A DNA stretch of 64,000 nucleotides from Candidatus Poribacteria bacterium (GCA_965215265.1 OZ244048.1:3072001-3136000), one strand, 5' to 3'; numbered from the stretch's first letter, positions 38,906 through 39,114 are shown. Notes: generated by a model from the sequence alone, not told the origin. Numbers and translations are program-made.

Positions 38906-38936
38906 AAAGTGCATCCAAAAATGTGTTTAAGTGAAT
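38906..38936 (+). promoter_or_regulatory. Shared upstream motif copy 2
   Basis: AAAGTGCATCCAAAAATGTGTT-TAAG-TGAAT. Confidence 0.75.
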
Positions 38937-39114
38937 CATTATCATTATTTATGATGATGATATCCTGTACCGCTATGCGGAAAAGGAGGTGCTTGTTATG
39001 TTAGCAAACCAGAGGTGGTGTGACACCTAAGTGTCGTACCCTTATGGTGTGACGCTTCGGTGTCGCGCCCTTCAGGCCAGGGCAGGGGGCTGAACCCCCT
39101 CTGCCCTCATTTTT
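38935..39114 (+). ncRNA. Candidate structured small RNA/leader with micro-ORF MLANQRWCDT (38998-39030), twin hairpins and terminator
   Basis: 5' hairpin, AAGGAGGT SD, two 29-nt tandem units each folding into a 10-bp stem, GC-rich stem plus T tract. Confidence 0.55.
39079..39114 (+). terminator. Intrinsic terminator
   Basis: AGGGCAGGGGG-CTGAA-CCCCCTCTGCCCT then CATTTTT. Confidence 0.7.

Follow-up and report, generated by a model that had tools for sequence, protein, structure and literature searches.

Short reading frames inside regulatory RNAs are known from leader-peptide attenuators of the trp and his type, from the translational attenuation of ermC and cat, and from dual-function small RNAs that carry a small open reading frame (ORF), such as SgrS/SgrT, RNAIII/hld, and SR1/SR1P; the programmed frameshift site of prfB (RF2) features a Shine–Dalgarno (SD)-like element shortly before a stop codon. 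UpsM of Rhodobacter sphaeroides is reported to be a family-restricted small RNA that originates from termination inside a long 5′ leader and heads the dcw cluster (PMC5089854). The split sigma factor SigO–RsoA of Bacillus subtilis is reported to involve a protein with a sigma-4 domain only, and its own operon lies within the small set of promoters that it serves (PMC8103513). Here we describe an RNA encoded in a 64,000-nt stretch of the genome of a Candidatus Poribacteria bacterium (GCA_965215265.1 OZ244048.1:3072001-3136000); the whole stretch is referred to as the window, and positions are counted from its first letter. Positions 38935-39114 on the plus strand are a genuine small RNA gene of about 180 nt, not described before and restricted to Candidatus Poribacteria, and we rate the RNA as a new family, a variant of the leader or mini-ORF kind. 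As far as coding goes, all that would be conserved is that a ribosome initiates, reads some ten codons into a helix, and terminates at the tip.

All parts of the element lie on the plus strand. At the 5′ end stands P1, a perfect 11-bp stem-loop (38935-38961; arms ATCATTATCAT at 38935-38945 and ATGATGATGAT at 38951-38961, loop TATTT), followed by a UCCU (38963-38966) able to pair with the AGGA of the SD sequence, and by the small hairpin P2 (CCGC-TAT-GCGG, 38970-38980). The SD sequence itself, AAGGAGGT (38983-38990), is placed 7 nt 5′ of the ATG (38998) of a mini-ORF of 10 codons, MLANQRWCDT, whose stop codon TAA (39028-39030) sits in the loop (CTAA, 39027-39030) of the 10-bp hairpin H1 (39017-39040; GGTGTGACAC at 39017-39026, GTGTCGTACC at 39031-39040). 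Inside the frame lie the 5′ strand of a further helix, P3 (CCAGAGG, 39009-39015), and, overlapping it, an internal SD-like GAGGTGG (39012-39018), the two SD-like motifs of the RNA being about 30 nt apart. A second 10-bp hairpin, H2 (39046-39069; GGTGTGACGC at 39046-39055, loop TTCG at 39056-39059, GTGTCGCGCC at 39060-39069), leads directly into the 3′ strand of P3 (CTTCAGG, 39070-39076), and a Rho-independent terminator with 11 pairs, 8 of them G-C, closes the element (stem 39079-39107, then CATTTTT, to 39114). The 5′ hairpin, SD, ORF, twin units, and terminator had all been named in an earlier account made from the DNA alone (the sequence-only reading), and each was found in its place by reading the sequence, by a terminator scan, and by Tandem Repeats Finder, which reports 39016-39072 as 2.0 copies of a 29-nt period with 78% matches.

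The same account recognized no named family, and the database comparison agrees: Rfam 15 searched at gathering thresholds over the whole window returned four tRNAs only, and a permissive search of 38800-39560 at E up to 10 gave 18 weak matches, none near threshold, the best of those overlapping the element being Atu_C4 with 18.7 bits versus 80 needed. The element gives a single match in the 4.83-Mb genome and is single-copy; the match to a known repeat family that would have spoken against it was not found. A full-text literature search, with supplementary files outside it, found no report on Poribacteria RNAs or gene regulation.

To describe the distribution we designate the Candidatus Poribacteria family of the source genome f1, and other families f2, f3, f5, f7, f8, and f9. 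A BLAST-type DNA search found the element in 35 of 36 other f1 genomes, in none of nine f2 genomes, and in none of eight f3 genomes. A covariance model built from 30 sequences recovers it in 96 of the 99 sampled f1 genomes at 150–215 bits; together with the compensatory pairs described below, this bears out the expectation that relatives would conserve it. The model also gave weak matches in 2/10 f2 genomes and in the single f7 genome (1/1), which on inspection are true relatives. A scan for the core pattern over one genome per species returned at least 119 stretches, 80 of which were tested with the model: All model-positive loci belong to Poribacteria or to unclassified records, and the stretches from outside the Poribacteria gave no match at E up to 0.1. 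Pattern searching also detected RNA-type matches in eight of ten f2 genomes and in the single f7 genome; its count for f1 overstates the number of RNA matches because many f1 genomes contain false positives at the start of a gene with a glutamine synthetase-like N-terminus (read by eye). Diverged forms of the element are known from f2, f7, f8, and an unclassified record (L182).

The set of f1 homologues, collected by BLASTN with no ORF criterion, comprises 68 distinct sequences, and loops could be parsed in 67 of them. Both GGAGG and ATG are present in 68/68, and the alignment shows a spacer of variable length between an invariant SD and an invariant ATG. The frame has 10 codons in 65 sequences and 11 in the other three, ending with TAG in 64 and TAA in four. 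Six variants of the H1 loop occur among the 67 sequences, every one with an in-frame stop: Two are insertions of 3 nt, and three variants longer by 1 nt (four sequences) change TAG to TAA. The H2 loop has 11 variants in the same 67 sequences, with CGA, ATA, CAA, TAC, and TGC among those without a stop triplet. Indels within the frame are of +3 nt (two loop variants) or −3 nt (f2 versus f1), and the lengths of the linker, the H2 loop, and the P1 loop vary by 1–2 nt. SD, start codon, and in-loop stop are in this sense conserved as if the frame were read.

Frames of 9–10 codons with UGA or UAG at the hairpin apex are also found in the other families. The peptide takes the form MLANQRRCDT in f1 and MKLLRWCDR in f2, the latter varying as M(K/R/E)(L/F/S)(L/P)RWC(D/Y)(R/C) with stop UGA; it reads MLKSPRWLAT in f7, MFKSPRWLET in f8, and MKSSRWWKT in L182, each with stop UAG. 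Judged from these predicted peptides, the product is poorly conserved between families, and frame length and the apex position of the stop are conserved. GAGGNGG precedes the stop by 16 nt in 73 and by 19 nt in four of 80 pattern-selected sequences, at least four of the 80 being chance matches that belong to other phyla. The frame contains, once or twice, AGG, the rarest arginine codon here (6.9% of arginine codons in 749 long ORFs). Such a pattern is to be expected if what counts is translating and not the product, and it is from this indirect evidence that we infer translation of the mini-ORF. Read-through of the stop, use of the +1 or +2 frames, and a GUG restart past the stop were considered and rejected, as 1-nt indels, read from the alignments, keep these frames from being retained between genera.

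Folding of the plus strand yields −93.6 kcal/mol (z = −8.3), a value that none of 200 shuffles equaled; the minus strand reaches z = −4.8, and many stem positions are G-U pairs, which only the plus-strand transcript can form. Structure counts were made on a 30-sequence f1 alignment with 81% mean column identity: 97.2% of 1333 cells hold standard pairs, versus 35–61% when the structure is slid by one to three columns. P1 is paired in 100% of cells, and two of its ten pairs are changed on both sides (AU / GC / CG); the terminator has two-sided changes in four of its 11 pairs. P2, paired in 96.6% of cells, has no two-sided changes, and the pairing of UCCU (38963-38966) with the AGGA of the SD proposed by RNAalifold involves invariant columns; support for both is weak. 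H1 is paired in 100% of cells and H2 in 95%. Selection at the RNA level, which the sequence-only reading had proposed, is therefore borne out by compensatory pairs in P1, the terminator, and H1 and by arm substitutions that are almost exclusively transitions. The hairpins of f7 and f8 (GGUUGGCGAC/GUCGUCGACU and GGUUGGAAACCUA/UAGGUUUUCAAACC), compared by eye, depart from the f1 hairpin at four stem positions, with both partners changed.

It should be noted that the same alignment does not single out the twin fold. The minimum-free-energy fold joins both units into one long hairpin, and the alternative pairings this implies are equally well kept (H1 3′ arm with H2 5′ arm, 99.7% of cells; H1 5′ arm with H2 3′ arm, 95.3%), with two-sided changes in 7 pairs if the twin model is assumed and in 10 if the long hairpin is. 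Because the substitutions in the arms, read from the alignment, are nearly all transitions that exchange Watson–Crick and wobble pairs, the twin fold and the single long hairpin are equally compatible with the data at 97.2% paired each. The pairing-preserving differences between the two units are real, as claimed earlier, but they do not show that the twin fold is used. Nor is the twin hairpin the core of the element, since the f2, f7, and f8 relatives carry one hairpin only and no H2 was found in them; on these alignments H2 is a tandem duplicate of H1 specific to f1. The cUUCGg tetraloop is present in H2 and is peculiar to the source genome.

The third helix joins the mini-ORF to the strand directly past H2. 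The (C/U)CAGAGG of the ORF pairs with that strand in a mean contiguous run of 6.6 of 7 positions versus 2.9 in shuffles (66 distinct f1 sequences), and on average 2.4% of shuffles reach the observed run. A C-G pair of P3 in one large genus becomes U-A in another and U-G in four sequences, and the change on the ORF side is the sole synonymous change seen in the ORF. In the source genome six of the seven positions pair (39009-39015 with 39070-39076), the longest contiguous run being four. A competing pairing from RNAalifold, between CAGAGG of the ORF and CCUCUG of the terminator 3′ arm, was rejected: Five of its six pairs are invariant or changed on one side, and the sixth is broken in 2 of 30 sequences, where the terminator covaries, with the terminator compensating in one (L021).

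A promoter-like box precedes the element (38905-38932, plus strand): AAAA-GTGCATCC (38909-38916), five nucleotides, TGTGT (38922-38926), and the −10-like TTAAGT. AAAAGTGCATCC-N5-TGTGT with a −10-like hexamer is found 25 nt before P1 in 30/30 aligned loci. GTGCATCC-N5-TGTGT occurs in 39 of 41 f1 genomes with about 165 matches (hand count) versus two for the reversed control, and seven and three times in two f2 genomes versus none for the control, so the box is common to the RNA and several to about eight other sites per genome. Behind it lie the gene of a helix-turn-helix (HTH) protein and paralogues of a putative selenoprotein gene, both described below, as well as genes for beta-propeller-like and membrane proteins (read by eye from the sequence). 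In the source genome, infA is added to these: The 20-nt box core, at zero mismatches, has exactly two copies, that of the RNA and one (36714-36731, plus strand; core at genome position 3108712) located 57 nt 5′ of the infA ATG at 36788. infA, identified by Pfam PF01176 (E = 6.1e-22), heads an infA–rsgA–GNAT arrangement whose GNAT gene has a weak RimI-like match (36.9 bits versus a cut-off of 86.4 bits). The products of infA and rsgA act on the 30S subunit.

In several box-bearing leaders the place of P1 is taken by a hairpin with another sequence, and some continue with GGUAUCYU and a P2-like hairpin. Since covarying hairpins stand at a fixed distance from the box, it would function as a promoter whose transcripts start at the base of P1. 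One paralogous leader in f2 combines this box with a P2-like hairpin, an SD, and ATGTTAG, which opens an upstream ORF of 13 codons that ends 11 nt before the start of the main gene. Near-matches to the box surfaced in dozens of paralogous genes of one genome (G000, e.g., at 997607, 1000293, 1262204, and 1793581) that share the block CCTGTGCATACGGTGTATGTGGACGCGTTCTATATGGA; this encodes PVHTVYVDAFYMD, which we take to be typical of formylglycine-generating-enzyme-like domains.

Upstream of the box, the GNAT gene runs to 38816, and beyond it stands a perfect palindrome, AAAAAAGGGAAAATTTGCAAATTTTCCCTTTTTT (38855-38888), which has A- and T-run flanks and resembles a bidirectional terminator; because of this succession the element is most likely its own transcription unit. 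The palindrome also gave rise to the spurious microRNA-family matches of the permissive search against Rfam. A paralogue of a module of the RNA, made up of an H2-like hairpin, the CCCUUUAGAAGA linker, and the terminator, is found at the 3′ end of the GNAT gene in some members of a single genus (L035 1765-1890, L036 1737-1865, L065 1444-1584, and L066 1419-1542, all on the minus strand; 38–46 bits with the covariance model).

Downstream of the element lies a gene for a 124-aa protein (39551-39925, plus strand) with a sigma-70 region 4 HTH only (Pfam PF04545, E = 6.4e-13, residues 58–95), and NCBIfam matches likewise cover only the region-4 end of sigma models. It is located 250–450 nt downstream of the RNA in 25 of 30 f1 loci and is found downstream in 8/8 f2 and f7 loci. 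The HTH gene has a wider distribution than the RNA (95/99 genomes in f1, 9/10 in f2, 5/26 in f3, 3/5 in f5, 1/1 in f7, 1/2 in f8, and 1/1 in f9). In one genus of f3 (g8), no RNA was found 5′ of the HTH gene; there (L214, L215, L222) the GTGCATCC box is followed by a gene for a hydrophobic, membrane-like protein of about 100 aa, which stands between box and HTH gene. Comparing coordinates by hand, the spacing between RNA and HTH gene in f1 is at most 1 kb in about 70 genomes and about 3 kb in two, and in about a dozen genomes they are on separate contigs. At the position of the terminator the f2 and f7 forms carry a long stem, and as this stem past the mini-ORF has no U-tract, the RNA may head the HTH transcript in these families. 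A sister genome (G001) holds a second, degenerate copy of the RNA (L061, G001:C1:1184300-1187400, at about 1458-1581), with a truncated promoter box, without the −10 element, the hairpins, and the terminator, and with the frame altered to MLANQRTFIS; it is located after a GNAT paralogue and before the HTH gene.

Between the RNA and the HTH gene, a second small ORF of 33 codons (39244-39345, plus strand; SD AAAGGAGGT) belongs to the locus and not to the RNA. A small ORF of about 25–33 codons with a strong SD occupies the same place in the aligned f1, f2, and f7 loci. In f2, changes in its C-terminal GTGTSAPRL segment are for the most part synonymous, as would be expected of a real small protein; one f1 genus has a different reading frame in the 3′ part. 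A hairpin, GGCATAG...CTATGCC (39510-39555, plus strand), encloses the SD and ATG (39551) of the HTH gene, with an inner CCUC:GAGG pairing that covers the SD; both 7-mers are kept in 16 of 17 aligned f1 and f2 sequences (by eye), and the single f7 locus has a different 10-bp anti-SD helix. From this pairing, the translation start of the HTH gene looks sequestered.

Further downstream, the ORFs 40064-40864 and 40880-41692 (plus strand) form one frame split by a single TGA (40862-40864) in the context ...DESC-[TGA]-GSGKNLRAG, and conservation continues past the TGA. A TGA is found at the same place, D(E/Q)(S/A)C-[TGA]-GSGK, in five of six paralogues from two families, and the genome encodes a tRNA-SeC (anticodon tca, genome position 2081521-2081614). 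The 40064-41692 gene is likely to represent a selenoprotein family with a Cys–Sec pair; neither half of it matches Pfam or NCBIfam. Its paralogues are among the genes that carry the GTGCATCC box.

On the observed conservation, structure, ORF architecture, shared promoter box, and synteny we base a reading that we favor tentatively, giving it somewhat less than an even chance: a translated mini-ORF riboregulator of the leader type, in which the ribosome operates a structural switch. Transcription would proceed from a regulon-specific promoter consisting of the GTGCATCC box near −30 and a TGTG-type extended −10. The RNA would open with P1 as a protective stem-loop, followed by a canonical ribosome-binding site and a frame of 9–11 codons, the last two-thirds of which would be buried in a helix formed by P3 and H1. 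Left untranslated, it would be a closed rod of P3 and H1, extended in f1 by the duplicated H2. A ribosome starting at 38998 would have to open P3 and H1 and would hold both open at the apex stop, where the SD-like GAGGNGG would be a few nucleotides behind the P site; the RNA would in this manner probably sense ribosome traffic. In the layout common to several families the element heads the locus of the sigma-70-region-4 HTH regulator, whose output, we infer, may be tuned by translation of the mini-ORF. The strong terminator that ends the element in f1 would yield mainly free RNA there.

Several observations weigh against this riboregulator. The synonymous sites of the mini-ORF are nearly frozen within f1, so that part of the constraint falls on the RNA and not on decoding. 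Folding with a ribosome footprint masked at three positions gave no antiterminator and left the terminator intact in 5/5 representatives, and the best candidate for an antiterminator, UUUCUG with the CAGAGG of the terminator 5′ arm, is a 6-bp pairing including two G-U pairs that was found by eye in one genus. Antitermination as the main mechanism was rejected, as the ribosome-masked folds never lose the terminator. In f1 this terminator is canonical and covarying, and downstream of it, before the second small ORF and the HTH gene, stands a −10-like TATACT (TATAAC in the source genome). In eight genomes (G001, G004, G023, G027, G066, G068, G073, and G081) RNA and HTH gene share a contig at a distance of more than 400 kb; in G001 the HTH gene has the degenerate copy beside it, and the intact copy lies elsewhere. 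The gene downstream of the L182 form, read by eye, is an unrelated winged-helix-type regulator and not the HTH gene. With RNA and HTH gene unlinked in at least eight genomes, a simple cis attenuator cannot be the whole story. Among the three roles that the sequence-only reading had offered (leader-peptide attenuator, protein-binding twin-hairpin small RNA, ribosome-decoy mRNA), the attenuator nevertheless fits best given the HTH gene downstream in 25 of 30 f1 and 8/8 f2 and f7 loci; its antitermination step is not supported by the constrained folds.

The same unlinked loci lend weight to the main rival, which we regard as rather unlikely: a stand-alone trans-acting small RNA, possibly dual-function, that forms the RNA arm of the GTGCATCC-box regulon and acts on other transcripts or on a protein, with its promoter controlled by the adjacent HTH protein and the mini-ORF being secondary. 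The strong covarying terminator throughout f1, the retention of the RNA where it is unlinked from the HTH gene (as with the intact G001 copy), and the further box sites in each genome are all as this explanation would have them, and regulator genes commonly adjoin the small RNAs that they control. It has to contend with the lack of any target, since perfect-match scanning of the source genome gave 432 complementary 11-mers, about as many as by chance; no conserved single-stranded stretch is longer than the ribosome-binding site itself, and RNA and HTH gene lie adjacent on the same strand in most genomes. Some more specific readings were examined and rejected. A CsrB/RsmZ-type sponge does not fit hairpin loops without GGA (by eye), and in f2 the changes of AAGGAGG to AAGGGGG and of GAGGAGG to GAGGUGG leave no GGA at these two sites either. 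Repeats and a terminator are present as in a type III (ToxI-like) antitoxin, but the next genes are the 33-codon ORF and the sigma-70-region-4 protein (with a defense-system library outside the search), and the relatives carry a single repeat unit. A resemblance of the hairpin arms to the 16S decoding helix fails by eye on strand polarity.

Constraint on the RNA itself could also mean that the RNA is structured and not translated at all, its SD, AUG, and SD-like motif acting as a decoy for the 30S subunit or a protein, or its rod of about 27 bp as a substrate for a double-strand-specific nuclease. The spacing of the two SD-like motifs, the nearly continuous helix of P3 and long hairpin in the minimum-free-energy fold, the near-invariance of synonymous positions in f1, and a P3 that begins at +12, near enough to the start codon to hinder initiation, would all suit such an RNA. 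We consider it improbable, because it leaves unexplained the frame of 9–11 codons, the frame-preserving indels, and the in-frame apex stop across families, features that persist as peptide and hairpin sequences change; and the f2, f7, and f8 forms, having no second hairpin, would form no long rod. At the other extreme, the strong SD, the ATG, the conserved frame, and a KSPRW common to f7, f8, and one f2 form might indicate an ordinary gene for a functional 10-residue micropeptide, with hairpins and terminator as a stabilizing 3′ end. This appears very unlikely: The peptide diverges strongly from one family to the next and also inside f2 (KLL, RFL, KSP, and ELL at residues 2–4), residues 6–10 are dictated by the helix and the SD-like sequence, and the variable ORF positions within f1 are mostly non-synonymous or pair-compensated. 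That the element is functionless (a structure arisen by chance, a dispersed repeat, or a decayed leader whose gene has been lost) is hardly credible and already contradicted by the conservation data. Related leader modules of box, P1, and P2-like hairpin do precede several other genes, and the second G001 copy is degenerate; yet the element is single-copy in the source genome, which also disposes of a REP-like dispersed repeat, and it is kept in nearly all f1 genomes with compensatory changes and a fold far outside the range of shuffles.

For the ribosome-operated switch, one further and more specific version is a long shot: The RNA might be a gauge of translational capacity, in which GAGGNGG holds the terminating ribosome at the apex of the hairpin, the proportion of open to closed RNA reports how efficiently 30S subunits initiate and terminate, and this feeds a sigma-4-only activator, or the half of a split sigma factor, reading the GTGCATCC box. 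If so, the regulon would include infA–rsgA, with the GNAT acetyltransferase gene, and the Cys–Sec protein family, and would represent a type of ribosome-sensing circuit that is not known from any phylum. Should the mini-ORF be read at all, nature would here provide an unusually clean example in which selection falls on translating and not on the product. The Poribacteria are sponge symbionts that have not been cultivated, and the regulatory module at this locus is small and open to testing: It consists of a distinctive promoter box, the 5′ hairpin that its leaders share, a protein with sigma-4 only, and the RNA, and it is portable to toeprinting and reporter assays without culturing the organism.

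How the element compares with the systems introduced above differs from case to case. It shares with prfB an SD-like sequence a few nucleotides 5′ of the P-site codon when the stop is in the A site; unlike prfB, it has no slippery codon, its +1 and +2 frames are not conserved, and its stop varies between UAG, UAA, and UGA. As in SigO, the neighboring HTH protein carries a sigma-4 domain only, and we hypothesize that it binds the GTGCATCC box; unlike in SigO–RsoA, no sigma-2 partner was identified for it, none having been searched for. The dual-function small RNAs resemble the element in being terminated RNAs of about 200 nt that are encoded beside a regulator gene and combine a genuine ribosome-binding site with a short frame; the element differs from them in a frame of only 9–11 codons, in a peptide that is not conserved between families, and in that an 11-mer scan of the source genome found no base-pairing target.

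The likeness to leader-peptide attenuators is more extensive: The 3′ part of the short leader frame doubles as the 5′ arm of a hairpin and has its stop near the hairpin top, the ORF (38998-39030) shares sequence with the 5′ strand of P3 and the 5′ arm of H1, and beyond it come a terminator and the gene of a regulator; in f1, moreover, the four arms can pair 1:2 and 3:4 or 2:3 (with 1:4). The element departs from attenuators in having no run of regulatory codons, no stable antiterminator in constrained folds of five sequences, a downstream gene with an apparent −10-like element of its own that is sometimes unlinked, relatives with one hairpin, and an internal SD-like motif 16 nt before the stop. 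With UpsM it has in common a Rho-independent terminator in an extended leader that gives rise to a free RNA limited to one bacterial family, which may act in cis or in trans; differences are that the UpsM abstract names no mini-ORF and that UpsM stands at the head of the dcw cluster, not of a regulator gene. By analogy, the element would work most like leader-peptide attenuators and small RNAs terminated within a leader, such as UpsM.

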